The notes under the pieces are model-generated. The model saw nothing but the letters and a program-made list of their open reading frames with translations. It searched no databases and was not told the origin of the DNA. The position numbers were made by a program, and so were the translations under genes. Shown piece after piece: positions 18,932 to 24,478 of a DNA stretch of 64,000 nt (within the stretch, counting starts at the first letter, position 1; the number at the start of each line of letters is the position of its first letter). Origin of the DNA: Candidatus Aminicenantes bacterium. Lineage in GTDB: Bacteria > Acidobacteriota > Aminicenantia > UBA2199. Where the stretch lies: positions 185,988-249,987 of the forward strand of contig JAPKZK010000038.1 of NCBI GenBank assembly GCA_026393835.1. Reading direction: 5' to 3'.

Positions 18932-19016
18932 ATGAAAATAGCCACAGAGTGCACAGAGAGCACAGAGAGAAAAATTTTTTTTAACTCTGTGTCCTCCGTG
19001 TCCTCTGTGGCTATTT
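18932..19016. mobile_element. Gene-less inverted-repeat (MITE-like) element with TAGCCAC ends
   Basis: aaatagccacagagtgcacagagagcacagag ... ctctgtgtcctccgtgtcctctgtggctattt. Confidence 0.6.
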
Positions 19017-19665
19017 ATTTATTTTTGCCAGAAAATGTCAGGATTTCACGTGTTATTAAATAGCAGTGTGAAATAAAAACCCGAATGCCTTTTTTTAAAG
19101 CCCGGAGTTCACGTTCCCTGGTGTTTTCCATAGACATATCGTAACTCACCTGGATTAAACGGCTTACTTTCTGATTCTCAAGCACTACAAAATCGACCTC
19201 TTCACCTTTATCATTTCTCCAATAATAAAGATCATATCCTCTTCTTACCAATTCGATAGCCGCCAGGTTTTCAAGCGACCTGCTTTTATCCGGGTTTAAA
19301 GAGAGGTATTTTAAAAAACCGGTATCGACAAAATAGATTTTTCTCGGATACTGCATCTGGTCTTTTACATTGGTGGAATAAAACAATGCCTGGTATAGAA
19401 AGAGGGATTTTTCCATGTAAGAAATATAATTCGAAATGGTATTTTTACTGCACCGGAACCCCATGCTTTGTAACGTATTGGCGAGTTTAGATATCGAAAT
19501 CATCAACGAATTCAAAATTAACCTGACAGTGGCGGATAATAAAGCTTCTTCCCTTATGTTGAAGCGCTCCGCCAGGTCCCGCTGCACCAGGGTCCTGAAA
19601 TATTCTTGTATAACTTCTTTGCATTCCAGGTCATCGGCGTCGAAATGAAATTGGGGGTCAGGCAA
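19015..19665 (-). pseudogene. DUF4143 ATPase fragment, truncated at both ends
   Basis: No Walker motifs; KIYFVDTG, LENLAAIEL, EVDFVV, IQVSY; stops at RERELRALKKGI. Confidence 0.8.
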
Positions 19666-19765
19666 AAATTAACCCTCAACAAAAAAAATCGAAAAAGGAA
19701 TATTCTATCAAATTATTGACATTTAAGGCATTTTCTTCTATTGTATTCACTGGAGGTAATTAAAG

Positions 19766-19981
19766 ATGCGATTTAACATAATAATGGAACCAGCGGAAGA
19801 AGGTGGGTACAATGTAACTGTCCCAGCGCTGGATGGGTGTTTTACCCAGGGTGATACAGAGGAAGAAGCTCTTAAAAATGCCCAGGAAGCGATCTCCTGC
19901 TATCTCGAGGGGCTCGAGAAGTTAAATCAAATTAAAGCCAGGCCAGGAGTTCTTTTGAGAGAACTGGAGGTCTGCCTTTGA
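19766..19981 (+). CDS. hicB: HicB-family antitoxin
   Basis: EEGGYNVTVPALDGCFTQGDTEEEALKNAQEAI; GGAGG RBS. Confidence 0.88.
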   Translation: MRFNIIMEPAEEGGYNVTVPALDGCFTQGDTEEEALKNAQEAISCYLEGLEKLNQIKARPGVLLRELEVCL

Positions 19982-20037: not shown

Positions 20038-20445
20038 TTAAATAATAAACATGGCATCGCCGTAAGAGAAAAAGCGATAACCACTCTCTACAGCGACCCG
20101 GTACGCTTCTTTCATCAATTCGAGCCCACCAAACGCGGCAGTCAATATGAACAAACTCGACTCAGGCAAATGAAAATTGGTAATTAATTTGTCCGCCATC
20201 CGGAACCGGAACCCTGGTGAAATAAATATCTCGGAATAAAACGTCTCTTCCTCGGGCTCTTGCAGGGCATACGTTTCCAACGAACGAACCGACGTCGTAC
20301 CCACGGCAATAAGATGTTTCGTTTCCTTCAACCGCCGGATGCGTTCCCGGTCCTGCCGCGTTATGGTAATATATTCCCGCCCCATGCGATGCCGCGATAT
20401 ATCTTCTACCTCTATCTTTTGAAAGGTGGCCTCCCCCACATTTAG
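20038..20445 (-). pseudogene. queA: 3' fragment of queA
   Basis: NVGEATF, AVGTTSVRSLET, LITNFHLPESSL, YRFFSYGDAM; N-terminal ~60% absent. Confidence 0.85.
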
Positions 20446-20556
20446 TGGCGCTTCCGGACTGTCCCCTTCGTCCCATAATTAACAAGTGACCATTAGCAAT
20501 TATTTCTTTAAAAGGGGGGGCACTGTGAAAATCCGTGCTGTATGCGAAGTCGCGAA

Positions 20557-20613
20557 GTCGCGTCGTTCAGGGGTGCCGCGAAAAAAGCGAACCGCACCCC
20601 TGAACAACGCGAC
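20557..20613. terminator. Long GC-rich hairpin downstream of the 104-aa gene
   Basis: gtcgcgtcgttcaggggtgc / gcacccctgaacaacgcgac, 20-bp arms with one mismatch. Confidence 0.5.
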
Positions 20614-20641
20614 AATGCTCCGCTGCGAACTCAAAGACTTA

Positions 20642-20956
20642 CTATTTTTTGTCTGTAATTCCGCATTCTTTCCAGAGCGCAAAATCGATTTCCAATTTAA
20701 CCAACTTCCTGGCTTCAATCATTTTAGCCATCATCTCGTCCAATTTCGCGTCTAACTCTTCGGTTTTCTTTTTCAACTGGGCTTTGAGACTTTCCTGGTC
20801 ATTATTTAAGATGACAGATTCCAGTTTCAAGGTTGAAATCGATTGGATAAACGGTTCATCGACTCCCCGGCGAGTTAACCTGGACAGGTTTTTCGTAAGT
20901 CCCGATACCATGACTTCGGCATCGCTAATTTTTTCTGCATAAGATGTTTTAGGCAT
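20642..20956 (-). CDS. Hypothetical helical/coiled-coil protein, 104 aa
   Basis: Strong RBS AAGGAGG; SYAEKISDAEVMVSGL..LNNDQESLKAQLKKKT..WKECGITDKK. Confidence 0.8.
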   Translation of the reverse strand: MPKTSYAEKISDAEVMVSGLTKNLSRLTRRGVDEPFIQSISTLKLESVILNNDQESLKAQLKKKTEELDAKLDEMMAKMIEARKLVKLEIDFALWKECGITDKK

Positions 20957-21019
20957 TTTTGCCCTCCTTTTTATATTCTATTTTCATGGCGACAACCGCC
21001 ATTTTCTACCTTGTTTTTA

Positions 21020-21240
21020 CCTTCCCCAACGTAGGGGAACCCTTCCCCCATGTAGGGGAAACCTTCCCCCATGTAGGGGACCTCTTCCCCCATGTAGGGG
21101 AGACTTTCCCCGATGTAGGGGATGCCTTCCCCCATGTAGGGGAGATTTTCCCCCATGTAGGGGAACTCTTCCCCCATGTAGGGGAACCTTTGCCCTAAGT
21201 AGGGGAAACCTTCCCCCAGGTGGGGGAACGTTTCCCCCAA
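21020..21240. repeat. 21-bp tandem array, 10 units, each a small hairpin
   Basis: Consensus GTAGGGGA-nnnn-TTCCCCCAT; units start at 21031, 21052, ... 21220. Confidence 0.95.
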
Positions 21241-21383
21241 CTTTTTTAAAGAGTTATTAAGTTCGGGGGACAATTCCCCAATCTGAAGGATAATCTCCCC
21301 TAACTCGGAAAGGCTTTCCCCCACTTGTTTTTTCATTGGAAACAACCGGGAAATATCACGCCCCATTTGAGGTGGCACCAGAA

Positions 21384-21602
21384 AATGTAACATCATCATT
21401 TGGATGTAATGCATATCTGTTACATTCTGCCACACAAAATAATTAGAGATCCGTTCTGTTTTTACCATCAAATGCTTTATATCACGGATTATTTTTGATG
21501 TCAAGTATTATTTTTATTTTGAAACATATCTGTTATATTTATGCATATGTGTTACATCCGAATCACTAACCTCTTGCAAAGTATAGGGAATTGGGATATA
21601 AT
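21384..21602. promoter_or_regulatory. Divergent sigma70 promoters with repeated operator-like boxes
   Basis: Leftward TTGACA-17-TATAAA (~21477-21505), rightward TTGCAA-17-TATAAT (21574-21602); CATAT(C/G)TGTTA(C/T)AT three times (~21412, 21525, 21544). Confidence 0.7.
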
Positions 21603-21608
21603 GACTGT

Positions 21609-22079
21609 ATGAGTGTGAAATCTTTGCCGGATATATACGAAGAAATAAGGCTAAAAATTGGGAACAAACTCAAAAGCCTGAGGAATAGTAAAGGCCTGAC
21701 CCAGTTTCGAGTGGCAGGGACCCTGCTAATATCCCGGATGCATTATATGAGACTTGAAAAGGGTGAAATGATACCCAGTGCAATGCATCTGTATCGGTTG
21801 GCGAAATTTTATGGTGTATCCATGGAGTGGTTCTTTGATGACGATTCAAATGTACCGCCGCCGGGGGTTCGAGCCCCATCTGATTTCGGAGCGGACCAGG
21901 ATACGGTGACGGAACTCTTTCAGGTTATGCGGGAGGTTCCTTTGATTCGTTACAGTATCCTGAAAGATTTTATGGAAATGAAGCAGGAGCATAAGGCCCT
22001 CATAAACTCCACCCGGGAGAAGTATAAGGAATACTCTGAAACGGCCATGAAGCATCAATCCCCTGACCAGGGCGCGTAA
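21609..22079 (+). CDS. XRE-family HTH transcriptional regulator
   Basis: IGNKLKSLRNSKGLTQ..YMRLEKGEMIPS..LAKFYGVSMEWF; ATG 6 nt after the -10 box. Confidence 0.88.
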   Translation: MSVKSLPDIYEEIRLKIGNKLKSLRNSKGLTQFRVAGTLLISRMHYMRLEKGEMIPSAMHLYRLAKFYGVSMEWFFDDDSNVPPPGVRAPSDFGADQDTVTELFQVMREVPLIRYSILKDFMEMKQEHKALINSTREKYKEYSETAMKHQSPDQGA

Positions 22080-22267
22080 AAAGGTGGGCTCTGGTTTATT
22101 GGTAGGGCCGGGAGCCCTGCGCAAAAAACTATGAACAATAAGCGGGCGAACACGGGGGTTCGCCCCTACAAAAGCAATATATCCGCTTATGCCCGTTAAC
22201 AATTAATAATTAACAATTGACCATTAAGAATTATCTCTTCAAAGAGCCAGGTTTTCTGTCTGTGAGC

Positions 22268-22359
22268 GTCGCAACGCTTGTGTCCGTCCGTGGCTCATAT
22301 TTTCCGGATTATCGGTAGGGCCGGGGGCCCTGGGCAAAAAACAACAAACGGGCGAACAC
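22268..22359. repeat. ~92-bp direct repeat, copy 1 (copy 2 at 24387-24478)
   Basis: acgcttgtgtccgtccgtggctcatattttccggattatcggtag.gccgggg.ccctgggcaaaaaacaa.aaacgggcg. Confidence 0.92.
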
Positions 22360-22451
22360 GGAAACAAGGCGGTTCGCCCCTACATAATAATATTAGGGCA
22401 TTCGCTTGAAATCCTTAATGGTTTGCTATAAAATACAGGGAGGAGTTGCTG

Positions 22452-23699
22452 ATGAAGATAAATAAAGTACACTTTGAAGACCACCCGTTTTTCGGGACCA
22501 TGGATATCGATTTTTCCGGTTCCGACGGCAGTCGTCCATTAAATACTGTAGTCATTGCCGGGATTAACGGTTCGGGGAAGACCACACTCCTGGATGCCAT
22601 CGTCGATATGATGACCGATGCGGCTAATCCCCTGGAAAAATCCTATCTCGAAATAGAACTGACGGAACTTTACGAAAAAAAACTTTTACATTGGGAATAC
22701 TACGATTTATCCTCGGTATTGGGGTGGAATGACGGCGATGAGAATAAAAGGCGTCGTGAAATTATTAAATTTAATGCCGGTAAGAAAGATGAAAGCAGGA
22801 ATTTGATCGACAAATTCAAACAACTGGAAGACAGTGAAAAACCGCGAATCGTGTATATGCCCACGGAGATAAATTTTAGCAAGATAGTGCCAAAGATTAA
22901 TCCTTATGTCTATAAATACAAATTCCTTAATATTGTCGACGAAAATGTCGCCCAGGATGTCCCGAACTATTTTGCAACCGATATCGACCGGGGTGTTTAC
23001 AGTAGCGACCAAAAACCGGCGGCTGAATCGATTAAGAAGGTTTGTGACGAGATAAATTCCATTTTCAAAGAACTTGAGATGGAATCATGGATAACCGGTT
23101 TGAAGAAGGATGGCTCACGGATGCCTATTTTCCGGAACAAAATAGGGAAAGAATTTGATATCACGGGATTATCATCAGGCGAGATGCAGCTTTTCCTTAG
23201 AATCATGAGTTTAAGAATGATGCAAATCAATAACTCCATCATTTTGGTGGACGAACCGGAAATTTCCTTGCATCCTTCGTGGCAGCAGAGGATCATAAAG
23301 GTTTACGAGAATATCGGTAAGAACAACCAGGTTATCGCGGCCACACATTCCCCGCATGTGGTATCTTCCGTTCCGAATGAAAATCTAAGAATATTATTGG
23401 TTGATCCCCCCGGCATACAGGTACTGGACCACAGGGACATAAGGAATTCATATGGGGTCGCCATTAAAAGGGTATTAAAAGATATCATGCTCTTGAAATC
23501 GGATAGAGACCCGGAGATTCAGTCGCGAATCGATGGTTTGAAGAGTGATTTAAAACGGGATGATTACAATCCGGCCAAATTTGAAACCTCTTTTAATGAA
23601 CTTGAAGAAATCCTGGGAACGACCGACGAAGAATTGATTCGAATCAAAATGGAAATGTTGAGAAAGGAGAAGAAAGCTAGAGATGCTGAAAATAGATAA
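22452..23699 (+). CDS. ABC/AAA_21 ATPase, PtuA-like
   Basis: GINGSGKTT, LSSGE signature, ILVDEPEISLHPSWQ, ATHSPH. Confidence 0.88.
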   Translation: MKINKVHFEDHPFFGTMDIDFSGSDGSRPLNTVVIAGINGSGKTTLLDAIVDMMTDAANPLEKSYLEIELTELYEKKLLHWEYYDLSSVLGWNDGDENKRRREIIKFNAGKKDESRNLIDKFKQLEDSEKPRIVYMPTEINFSKIVPKINPYVYKYKFLNIVDENVAQDVPNYFATDIDRGVYSSDQKPAAESIKKVCDEINSIFKELEMESWITGLKKDGSRMPIFRNKIGKEFDITGLSSGEMQLFLRIMSLRMMQINNSIILVDEPEISLHPSWQQRIIKVYENIGKNNQVIAATHSPHVVSSVPNENLRILLVDPPGIQVLDHRDIRNSYGVAIKRVLKDIMLLKSDRDPEIQSRIDGLKSDLKRDDYNPAKFETSFNELEEILGTTDEELIRIKMEMLRKEKKARDAENR

Positions 23700-24357
23700 A
23701 GCGGAAGAGCCCCAGGAATTCGTTGATTTCAAAAAAACACACCCGAAACAATGGGATGAGATTGACAATGTCCCCGGTTTAAAAAAGAGATTAAGGGACT
23801 ACCTTCTTGAACATGAGCAAAAAATAAATAGCAGTTACTGCTGCGTCTATTGCGAGCGCAAAATTAGCCTGGAACGTTCCCATATCGAGCATATCAAACC
23901 GAAATCCGTATATAAAGCCGATACCTTTAACTATCAAAATCTCACGGTCTCCTGCCAGGAGGATAAGGATAAGGTCAAAGTAAAAGGTCTAAAAAGAAAT
24001 TTGAAAACATGTGGGCATTATAAGGAGAATCGATTTGATGAAGCCAAATTTATAAATCCTGTCCTGGATTACCCCAAGGATTTCTTTACTTATGATATAA
24101 CCACCGGGAACGTTATTTCCCGGGAGGGTTTGAGTGGTAAGGAGCAGGGGAAAGCGAACTATACGATTGACCTTTTAAACCTAAACCATGCCTATTTAGC
24201 CGATACAAGAACCGAGATAATTAATAATTTTCGTTCAATTGAAAACAGGGAGGAATTGCTTTATGTTCTCGATCATTTTGACCAGTTTCCCGGGGTTGTT
24301 GACTTTTTCAGGAGTGAATATCTTGATATATGGAGCGAGATGCATGCCGCCACTTAA
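23683..24357 (+). CDS. HNH endonuclease, PtuB/TIGR02646-like
   Basis: EQ..CCVYCERKI, HIEHIKPKS, YQNLTVSC, TCGHYK, TIDLLNLN; overlaps the ATPase gene. Confidence 0.88.
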   Translation: MLKIDKAEEPQEFVDFKKTHPKQWDEIDNVPGLKKRLRDYLLEHEQKINSSYCCVYCERKISLERSHIEHIKPKSVYKADTFNYQNLTVSCQEDKDKVKVKGLKRNLKTCGHYKENRFDEAKFINPVLDYPKDFFTYDITTGNVISREGLSGKEQGKANYTIDLLNLNHAYLADTRTEIINNFRSIENREELLYVLDHFDQFPGVVDFFRSEYLDIWSEMHAAT

Positions 24358-24386: not shown

Positions 24387-24478
24387 GTCGCGACGCTTGT
24401 GTCCGTCCGTGGCTCATATTTTCCGGATTATCGGTAGAGCCGGGGTCCCTGGGCAAAAAACAATAAACGGGCGGACAC
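24387..24478. repeat. ~92-bp direct repeat, copy 2
   Basis: Matches 22268-22359. Confidence 0.92.

Follow-up and report, generated by a model that had tools for sequence, protein, structure and literature searches.

Within a 64,000-nt stretch of DNA from Candidatus Aminicenantes bacterium (contig JAPKZK010000038.1), here called the window and the frame for all coordinates below, a gene for a 104-aa protein stands downstream of a tandem array of ten 21-bp units. Comparison of related loci reveals that this pairing of a repeat array with a small protein is a trait of the protein's family, that a period of 21 bp, rarely 20 bp, is retained among loci, and that the sequences of the units are specific to each locus. 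Profile comparisons identify the protein as a single-domain relative of the double-domain PQLLE superfamily; the arrays carry neither a coding signal nor a strand-specific RNA signal, and the symmetry of their units matches the symmetry of the proteins encoded beside them. As our favoured reading we propose, tentatively and at somewhat under an even chance, that a dimeric helical rod binds phased double-stranded DNA repeats upstream of its own promoter, where binding, stoichiometry and regulatory outcome are features that we infer.

The module appears to be undescribed. A full-text search of the literature (subscription journals outside its coverage) found no description of a 21-bp array combined with a small protein, and likewise turned up no paper on the PQLLE family.

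Arrays of fixed period precede genes of one protein family

Pfam, PHROGs and PADLOC hold no family for the 104-aa protein, and a word-based search returned just five near relatives. A phmmer search of 1.84 billion cluster representatives (clusters at 50% identity) retrieved 275 at E ≤ 1e-3, of which 75 also passed E ≤ 1e-10; almost all are 100-107 aa long, with a C-terminal motif common to the family, W-x-E-[FC]-G-I-x-D-K-[KR]. Carriers belong mostly to Bacteroidota (Capnocytophaga, Riemerella, Bergeyella, Prevotellaceae, Tannerella, Porphyromonadaceae), and further members occur in Treponema, Bacillota, KSB1, Caldithrix and other metagenome-assembled genomes.

Eighty metagenome loci of the family were fetched, of which 73 with at least 400 nt of upstream sequence were counted and 7 with too little were left out. 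Tandem Repeats Finder (TRF) reported an upstream array with a period of 20, 21, 42, 63 or 84 in 66 of the 73, ending 67-232 nt (median 121) before the gene, and the remaining 301,570 bp of these loci held another such array in 2 loci only. Named-genome loci were obtained by an alignment-based scan, a scan with the single protein having found none; enough upstream sequence was available for 69 of its 79 loci, and TRF found an array in 45 of these. A threshold-free lag test compared the sequence from -420 to -30 with itself at lags of 12 to 30. Of 136 loci, 110 matched best at lag 21, 10 at lag 20 and 16 at some other lag; of 146 downstream controls, 14 matched best at 21 and 7 at 20. The loci negative by TRF (31 in number) included 20 with a best lag of 21 or 20. 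The preliminary description of the window had paired a repeat array with a small protein of no recognised family. That pairing is upheld far beyond this locus and, in the 136-locus lag test, homologs carry arrays widely rather than lacking them.

Of 66 arrays, 59 had a period of 21 and 7 a period of 20, equivalent to two turns of B-DNA. Paralogs in the genome that contains the window (an 8.19-Mb assembly of 212 contigs, 91.7% complete; G000) and relatives from the same bacterial family also have upstream arrays of period 21, one of them of period 20, with units unrelated to each other. Unit similarity climbs with protein identity across loci (Mantel p ~0.001) and, within this genome, where base composition cannot confound the comparison, among PQLLE paralogs (p 0.002) and among paralogs of an XRE-family regulator (p 0.002). 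Among 36 array groups no neighbouring gene is conserved outside this genome, which leaves the encoded protein as the sole locus-specific candidate for a partner of the array.

Relationship to the PQLLE superfamily

Members of the 104-aa family match the NCBIfam model NF052641 ("PQLLE family protein", a family of unknown function) weakly, and to either half of its 211-position profile. The curated cut-off is 80 bits, which neither the window protein (17.7 bits, E 0.0022) nor three further members of its family (17.9-24.7 bits) reach; a true member encoded on the same contig scores 172.3 bits. Alignment by hhalign of the 60-sequence alignment of the 104-aa family with 30 PQLLE sequences (96.5%, E 8.8e-10, 106 columns) matched the full 104-aa protein to the first half of PQLLE. 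The PQLLE model consists of two tandem copies of one helical unit, each half sharing its secondary structure with the 104-aa model, and the PQLLE C-terminal pattern PQ.LE.LGI resembles PQ..W.EFGI of the 104-aa family. These profile and motif similarities mark the 104-aa protein as a single-domain relative of the superfamily, and by their models the double-domain PQLLE proteins resemble a naturally fused 104-aa dimer.

Genes of both kinds sit downstream of arrays with a 21-bp period. In Riemerella, Capnocytophaga and KSB1 genomes the best upstream lag of PQLLE genes was 21 in 10 of 10, with TRF periods of 21, 42, 62, 63 or 84. In the genome of the window an array lies no more than 400 nt upstream of 32 of 60 PQLLE genes and of all five genes of the 104-aa type, compared with 86 of 3000 background open reading frames (ORFs). 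The two groups differ in having two domains or one, and in units that lack a palindrome beside PQLLE genes and are palindromic in the window.

Unit structure and symmetry

TRF recognises a single array at the window locus (21020-21239), with a period of 21, 10.5 copies and a score of 265 at 81% matches. On the minus strand, from 21237 to 21028, its ten units follow the form GGGGAA-nnn-TTCCCC-TACATG, with arms GGGGAA and TTCCCC, a loop of 3 nt and a spacer of 6 nt; in the degenerate units GGGGAATTGTCCCC and GGAAAGCCTTTCC the palindrome is retained despite sequence drift. Fourteen arrays of this GGGGA type, all head-to-tail and of period 21, occur in the genome, and the type is also found in one of five congeners. 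Over their 148 units the mean per-position entropy is lowest in the arms (0.32 bits), higher in the spacer (0.85) and highest in the loop (1.15). The variability noticed earlier in the four bases following GGGGA is real, with the correction that these bases comprise the loop and one base of an arm.

A significant inverted repeat in the consensus unit was present in 15 of 58 arrays that precede single-domain proteins, against 2.9 expected. It is confined to this fraction of arrays, and the hairpin of the window locus is therefore a subfamily trait; the feature conserved in the family is the period of 21 (rarely 20), not the hairpin. Units associated with PQLLE genes had no inverted repeat in any of 27 arrays in this genome or 10 elsewhere (0/37), a difference between single- and double-domain proteins with Fisher p = 3.3e-4, and arrays upstream of genes of the XRE cluster were not enriched (3/31). 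Unit symmetry thus matches protein symmetry, palindromes occurring with the predicted homodimer type of protein and none with the double-domain type, which fits direct recognition of the unit by the protein.

A predicted helical rod and its proposed binding to the array

The model of the 104-aa protein is an all-helical rod (predicted local distance difference test, pLDDT, 90.4) in which the helix 34-89 comprises 56 residues, about 84 A. A homodimer prediction scored 0.74, the best of three controls scoring 0.00, with at least 94% contact agreement between runs, a partner pLDDT of at least 87 and antiparallel contacts around residues 57-61. In calibration the mark used was reached by 20 of 30 proteins solved as pairs of one chain and by 1 of 23 solved as single chains, counts that apply only roughly here since the prediction was run on our own alignment. 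The protein is accordingly predicted to be an antiparallel homodimer. Conserved K/R residues occur at positions 58/62/64 and 83/84/87, with residues 58, 62 and 64 at the centre of the predicted dimer; some 24 residues, or roughly 36 A, separate the two groups, close to one DNA turn. The helix, at ~84 A, is close in length to 21 bp of DNA (~71 A), a geometric fit that we infer from the model.

Under the reading we favour, the 104-aa protein would most likely form an antiparallel homodimeric rod and would recognise the 21-bp units 5' of its own gene as double-stranded DNA, one dimer occupying two helical turns. The resulting cooperative nucleoprotein stack would abut the protein's own promoter and set its own expression. 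Through eleven further arrays of the same unit type that lack an accompanying family gene, the protein may also influence other genes, and the XRE protein encoded on the other side of the array would be a lineage-specific second regulator acting on three separate boxes. A more far-reaching version, which we consider doubtful, would make PQLLE-superfamily proteins sequence-programmable "rulers", rods about as long as two DNA turns that polymerise head to tail, each on its private 21-bp minisatellite, as a repeat-based regulatory or chromatin layer in which arrays without a gene serve as portable, protein-addressable promoters.

The position of promoters bears on where the array would act. The Bacteroidota -7 motif TAnnTTTG, scored in 57 non-redundant loci, lies between the array and the gene in 20 loci, in the 150 nt 5' of the array in 7 and within the array in 4. 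Measured before the ATG, 13 occurrences fall at 41-60 nt, 4 at 61-80, 3 at 21-40 and 1 at 81-100, with at most 3 in any other 20-nt bin. In loci of the Bacteroidota type the array therefore lies upstream of the transcription start and not in the mRNA. The gap between array and gene in the window contains the A/T-rich stretch TAGAATATAAAAA, and near-identical stretches (TAGAATATAAAAA / TGGAATATAAAAA) occur in the gaps of the paralog L005 and the relative L012; by its sequence TAGAATATAAAAA is a possible -10 element, to which a promoter role may be ascribed.

Several observations weigh against this reading. At the window locus a leftward promoter-like site lies beyond the array. Hexamers resembling a -10 element are only weakly enriched in the gap (28 of 61 PQLLE and 3 of 5 104-aa-type genes, against 451 of 1500 background ORFs), and a gap promoter is therefore not claimed for the lineage of the window. 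By TRF, 24 of the 69 named-genome loci and 7 of the 73 metagenome loci are without an array, and between a quarter and a third of loci in named genomes show weak arrays or none. The loci are not all independent, de-duplication leaving 36 to 57 groups depending on the criterion, and unit similarity decays fast, to 0.52 at 60-80% protein identity against a baseline of ~0.45. This genome contains 342 distinct arrays of period 20, 21, 42 or 63, 80.6 kb in total, only 69 of which lie upstream of the three identified families (104-aa type, PQLLE and XRE cluster); many arrays thus stand apart from any gene of these families. Pfam, PHROGs, PADLOC and a sequence search of solved structures (E >= 0.083) revealed no recognisable DNA-binding domain in the protein. 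Foldseek gave no match at E ≤ 0.001 for the 104-aa or the 247-aa model, only generic helical bundles, and the best VIA Z values (7.2 and 9.7, respectively) also belong to generic bundles. The proteins are only mildly basic (median isoelectric point 8.7; 7.8 for the window protein). No longer protein joining the family to a known extra domain came to light; none of 7999 scored candidates of 189-2000 aa reached E ≤ 1e-5, which is weak evidence, and in 17 longer family members the sole Pfam match above cut-off is a 19-residue one to ribosomal S7.

Alternative explanations

The preliminary description suggested a repeat-RNA array organised loosely like a type III toxin-antitoxin (TA) locus. In a partnership of this kind the array would be transcribed from the leftward promoter near 21507-21536 and its 21-nt units, processed or as a scaffold, would bind or antagonise the protein, as antitoxin or RNA sponge. 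We now regard this as improbable. The promoter-like site 5' of the array is indeed directed at it, the units of this subfamily can fold as hairpins, and the array of the window folds better in sense (-102.9 kcal/mol) than in antisense (-94.9 kcal/mol). The module is compact, present in multiple copies and placed in what looks like a defence/TA island, adjoined by a Septu system and near a HicB-like gene, and its variable copy number and fast-diverging units at a fixed period are as in type III antitoxin repeats. At arm pair 6:10, read on the gene strand, G:T exceeds A:C by 31 to 11, but over all six arm pairs the counts are 38 and 27, from units that are not independent. Among 36 array groups the sense strand folds better in 22 and the antisense strand in 14 (Wilcoxon p 0.76), with 171 G-U pairs in sense and 169 in antisense. 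Several arrays barely fold at all (that of L081 reaches -3.9 kcal/mol over 166 nt), and arrays linked to PQLLE genes lack inverted repeats altogether. The Bacteroidota promoter motif lies between array and gene, the minus strand of the 70-nt gap (20957-21027) has no listed terminator-like site, and the protein is modelled as a helical rod and not as an endoribonuclease fold; no match to the ToxN/AbiQ, CptN or TenpN endoribonucleases was found in Pfam, NCBIfam, PHROG or PADLOC. None of these results favours RNA hairpins formed by the gene strand in particular, and the TA-like mechanism is not supported.

The array might instead be a protein-independent cis element, its phased repeats acting by DNA shape or number as an expression rheostat or phase-variation device, with an unrelated role for the protein, for instance a structural or membrane-associated one. 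To this, too, we assign a low probability. It would accord with a two-helical-turn period that is kept while the sequence is not, and with copy numbers that vary between near-identical genes: loci whose protein matches at 97-98% identity have 6.3, 6.3, 7.2, 7.4, 8.2 and 9.3 units, with 3.4 in a named genome, and the relative P0001, 85% identical in its upstream region, has ~2 units where the window has ten. The predicted fold is also only generically like BAR-like and other elongated bundles, and automatic cluster names in the Atlas read "membrane-binding protein". A general promoter device, however, should not be limited to one superfamily, and such arrays were nearly absent from the rest of the metagenome loci (the 2 loci in 301,570 bp noted above). 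This explanation also leaves unaccounted for both the match between protein architecture and unit symmetry and the tracking of protein identity by unit similarity.

A further possibility, with a slim chance of being correct, is that the palindromic GGGGAAnnnTTCCCC units are, in this lineage, targets of the divergently encoded XRE regulator instead of the 104-aa protein, which would be no more than its regulated cargo. Dimers of XRE helix-turn-helix (HTH) proteins classically bind palindromes, an XRE gene lies across the array here and at the paralogous modules L006 and L008, and within this genome 36 of 114 XRE-cluster genes have an array no more than 400 nt upstream, at a median of 134 nt. 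The three boxes that the regulator probably uses are, however, unrelated to the array unit, the arrays of XRE genes show no enrichment of inverted repeats, and an XRE neighbour is present in none of 27 metagenome array groups outside this genome. It accompanies only 3 of the 36 array groups, all three from this genome (the window locus, L006 and L008), and the XRE gene, previously counted as part of the module, is better regarded as an occasional partner.

Equally slight is the chance that the array is a selfish minisatellite, resembling MITEs (miniature inverted-repeat transposable elements) or repetitive extragenic palindromic (REP) elements, that lies beside the gene by chance, its solo copies reflecting independent spread. 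Of the 14 GGGGA-type arrays the one in the window has an intact gene, and 11 are solo arrays with no family gene. Seven copies (window, C119, C18, C13, C203, C178 and C86) share a leader at 77-85% DNA identity by blastn, and six of the seven also share the tail, C86 having the leader only. Homology with the six copies begins at oriented positions 2361-2381 and reaches 2801 in C119 and C13 and 2673-2795 in the others, so that the widest homologous span corresponds to about 21385-20945 of the window. This leader-repeats-tail layout is like that given for BrickBuilt, a 23-nt minisatellite MITE (PMC4596501). On the plus strand the units read GT[AGC]G followed by a palindrome, as in REP elements. 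Yet the spread of one element cannot produce a protein association that extends across phyla with unrelated units. The units also stand head-to-tail at a strict 21 bp, and no Y1 (RAYT-type) transposase was found in the 91.7%-complete genome. Copy C13 retains a decayed gene remnant and C18 a weak one (E 0.5), and solo arrays may therefore be relics of whole modules.

Downstream of five solo arrays (C15, C40, C119, C159 and C203) an ORF of 296-796 aa on the same strand begins within about 600 nt, and several of these ORFs start with a signal-peptide-like sequence. They may be targets of the 104-aa protein, so that one protein may address several arrays. Arrays with GGGGA/TCCCC arms and a period of 20 (superperiod 60 or 40), in which the heptad frame described below is lost, precede 104-aa family proteins at L011 (G004:C671), L052 and L111; the L011 protein is 47% identical to that of the window.

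Finally, the array overlaps an ORF with the register GGG GAA nnn nTC CCC TAC ATG, encoding heptads of the form G-E-x-[FLIV]-P-Y-M, and there is next to no chance that it encodes a true GExFPYM heptad-repeat protein co-expressed with the 104-aa protein. The frame is open across the array and in all 14 GGGGA-type arrays, the frame of the opposite strand often containing TAA; heptad positions 4 and 7 remain hydrophobic, and five such proteins have been predicted by gene callers in public data. Only one codon per unit can mutate to a stop, however, and with 0.19 stops expected the ever-open frame carries no information, while the hydrophobic residues are a by-product of a T that is fixed in the arm or spacer. 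Entropy at codon positions 1, 2 and 3 is 0.85, 0.33 and 0.60 bits (148 units), so the third position is not the freest: wobble bases of codons 1, 4, 5 and 6 are nearly invariant, and variability peaks at the first position of codons 6 and 7 (1.59 and 1.76 bits). Variation thus follows arm, loop and spacer and not wobble, and in place of the synonymous bias and lost stem of a coding repeat the arms are conserved. In the wider family 6 of 36 array groups lack an open sense frame, open frames are about as frequent in antisense (39/108) as in sense (48/108), and some arrays have a period of 20. No Shine-Dalgarno-like motif precedes the candidate starts of the ORF (20971-21504, minus strand), which bears out the doubt already expressed on that account, and we judge the ORF not to be a gene.

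Organization of the locus and its surroundings

The coordinates of the module are collected in Table 1. The ten-unit array, the three boxes, the XRE gene, the helical 104-aa protein and the 20-bp stem reported in the preliminary description were each confirmed, by TRF, pattern search, Pfam, structure model and RNA fold, respectively, as was the strong ribosome site of the 104-aa gene.

Table 1. Features of the array module in the window (strand left empty where none is assigned)
Feature	Position	Strand	Basis or remarks
Inverted repeat with 20-bp stem, downstream of the 104-aa gene	20557..20613	-	RNA fold and genome search
Gene for the 104-aa protein	20642-20956	-	ORF list; GGAGG closely 5' of ATG
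"Tail" between array and 104-aa gene	20957..21027	-	GGAGG ribosome site, A/T-rich TAGAATATAAAAA, small hairpin ATGGCG-GTTGT-CGCCAT
GExFPYM heptad ORF overlapping the array	20971..21504	-	Judged not a gene
Core array, ten 21-bp units	21028..21237		TRF, register, positional entropy
Gene-distal stretch of four degenerate 21-bp units	21238..21321		Codon-register print-out
"Leader"	21322..21385		blastn of oriented loci against other GGGGA-type copies
Three direct CATAT(C/G)TGTTA(C/T)AT boxes	21412-21425, 21525-21538, 21544-21557	+	Pattern search
Leftward promoter-like site ATAACA-18-AATAAT	21536..21507	-	Consensus 9/12
Rightward promoter-like site TTGCAA-17-TATAAT	21574-21602	+	Consensus 10/12
XRE-family HTH regulator gene	21591-22079	+	162 aa from TTG; 156 aa from ATG 21609

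With up to one mismatch, the box pattern CATATSTGTTAYAT matches three times in the 64-kb window, each time on the plus strand (21412, 21525 and 21544); shuffled sequences contained a mean of 0.07 matches, and none of 100 reached three. The boxes are likely to be the operator of the XRE protein, which would bind there. Promoter-like sites face both ways, as described before, but the divergent promoters are consensus matches only, the region containing 6 such sites against 2.8 +/- 2.1 in shuffles. The rightward -10 hexamer stops 6 nt short of the XRE ATG at 21609, a position that suggests a leaderless XRE mRNA.

The XRE protein matches the Pfam models HTH_19 (8.3e-11, 42.1 bits, cut-off 30.2) and HTH_3 (3.8e-10, 40.1 bits, cut-off 23), and its RstR/DicA-like matches fall under the curated cut-offs. 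In this genome it is one of 116 ORFs, of roughly 130-160 aa, that form a paralog cluster. Contigs from public sequencing runs (two DNA, one RNA, one possibly RNA) break at the array, and one short contig from an RNA library lies on the XRE gene.

The context of the 20-bp stem (20530-20650, minus strand, 121 nt) folds with -53.2 kcal/mol (z = -5.4), and none of 200 shuffles folded as well. The stem occurs once in the genome and is not followed by a U-tract on the gene strand; its inner hairpin scored as terminator-like at 20613..20591. It is a possible transcript end or stabiliser.

Beyond the module, a complete Septu pair lies directly past the XRE gene (22446-24357, plus strand), comprising PtuA (417 aa, PADLOC E 7.8e-117) and the HNH protein PtuB (224 aa, E 8.5e-51). 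On the other side stands a truncated queA (20038-20439, minus strand) whose 133 aa cover only profile positions 192-322 of 322; a full-length queA is present on another contig (G000:C114:11085-12095), and the module occupies the place of the missing 5' half. The interval 19015-19981 contains a DUF4143/PDC-S01-like fragment (216 aa, positions 192-387 of a 412-position profile) and a gene for a HicB-like antitoxin (71 aa), alongside which no HicA was noticed. These surroundings look like a defence/toxin-antitoxin island.

G+C-rich palindromic elements of the form GGTAGGGCCGGG.GCCCTG...GGGCGAAC...GTTCGCCCCTAC are repeated at 22100-22170 and 22320-22395 and also near 24400-24470; one scores as terminator-like (22165..22144), and the elements have the look of a REP-like family of their own. 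At 22196-22233 the heptanucleotide TTAACAA is repeated in tandem 5.4 times. Other 7-nt arrays (AATGATG, GAATGAT and the like) flank the module copies L004 and L009, and TRF lists 281 rows of 7-nt repeats with at least 4 copies in this genome.

Comparison with known systems

The type II ParR-parC centromeres and the heptad arrays of the omega repressor also combine a small dimeric protein of ~100 aa with a cooperative head-to-tail array that lies upstream of, and overlaps, its own promoter, with a period of about one or two helical turns and a repeat sequence that differs between systems. The window module differs in that no gene for an actin-like or other NTPase partner is found among its neighbours (XRE, the queA fragment and Septu), in that its protein is modelled, as a monomer, as all-helical and not as a ribbon-helix-helix, and in that such modules are chromosomal with many copies per genome. 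On the second point, the monomer model is without strand and has residues 1-5 as coil; a ribbon would arise in a dimer alone, and the dimer prediction reports contacts and no secondary structure. Iterons of theta plasmids and their Rep proteins are similar in having direct repeats of 17-22 bp, spaced about 21-22 bp, beside the gene of the binder and with replicon-private specificity, whereas the module has no Rep-like winged-helix protein and no origin features, and its arrays number dozens to hundreds per chromosome.

Type III TA systems (ToxIN, CptIN, TenpIN) likewise place a promoter-proximal array before a single protein gene, have repeats that diverge at a fixed period and form compact multi-copy modules in defence islands. 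Their repeats are of about 34-45 nt, as against units of 21 nt in arrays of 6-20 units here, and the module shows neither a terminator in the gap nor a sign of strand-specific RNA structure.

BrickBuilt of Porphyromonas gingivalis is dispersed between genes in a leader-repeats-tail arrangement that resembles the eleven solo GGGGA-type arrays. Its description (PMC4596501) gives a 23-nt unit in 1 to 22.8 copies, reports promoter activity of the tail and describes no associated protein gene. A conserved leader and tail, as in a MITE of this type, surround the GGGGA-type arrays at C119, C18, C13, C203 and C178, C86 having the leader alone. The longest BrickBuilt tail is 318 nt, close to the 315 nt of genes of the 104-aa family. 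The tail might be a decayed gene of the 104-aa family, which we mention as a lead only.

In REP elements with their RAYT transposases, as on the plus strand of the window units, the tetranucleotide GT[AGC]G precedes a short palindrome rich in G+C. REP elements occur singly or in inverted pairs; the units of all 14 GGGGA-type arrays are head-to-tail at a strict 21-bp period. A search for the Y1 transposase (PF01797) gave no match in the 8.19-Mb assembly, whose 91.7% completeness leaves a small doubt, and the same search was positive in 6 of 14 genomes as a control.

Implications

If the favoured reading is true, binding of the arrays by the proteins encoded beside them would give a first functional handle on an uncharacterised superfamily. 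It would account for bacterial minisatellites with a strict two-helical-turn period that have so far looked like junk or MITEs, of which BrickBuilt may be one. Since a genome may carry paralogs by the dozen, with a different 21-bp unit for each, these would constitute a natural library of orthogonal protein-DNA pairs, useful for deriving a specificity code on a simple helical rod and for synthetic regulation. Should the broader notion of ruler proteins also be true, large genomes like the present one, in which 342 arrays accompany no fewer than 65 genes of the superfamily, would possess a repeat-based regulatory or chromatin layer.

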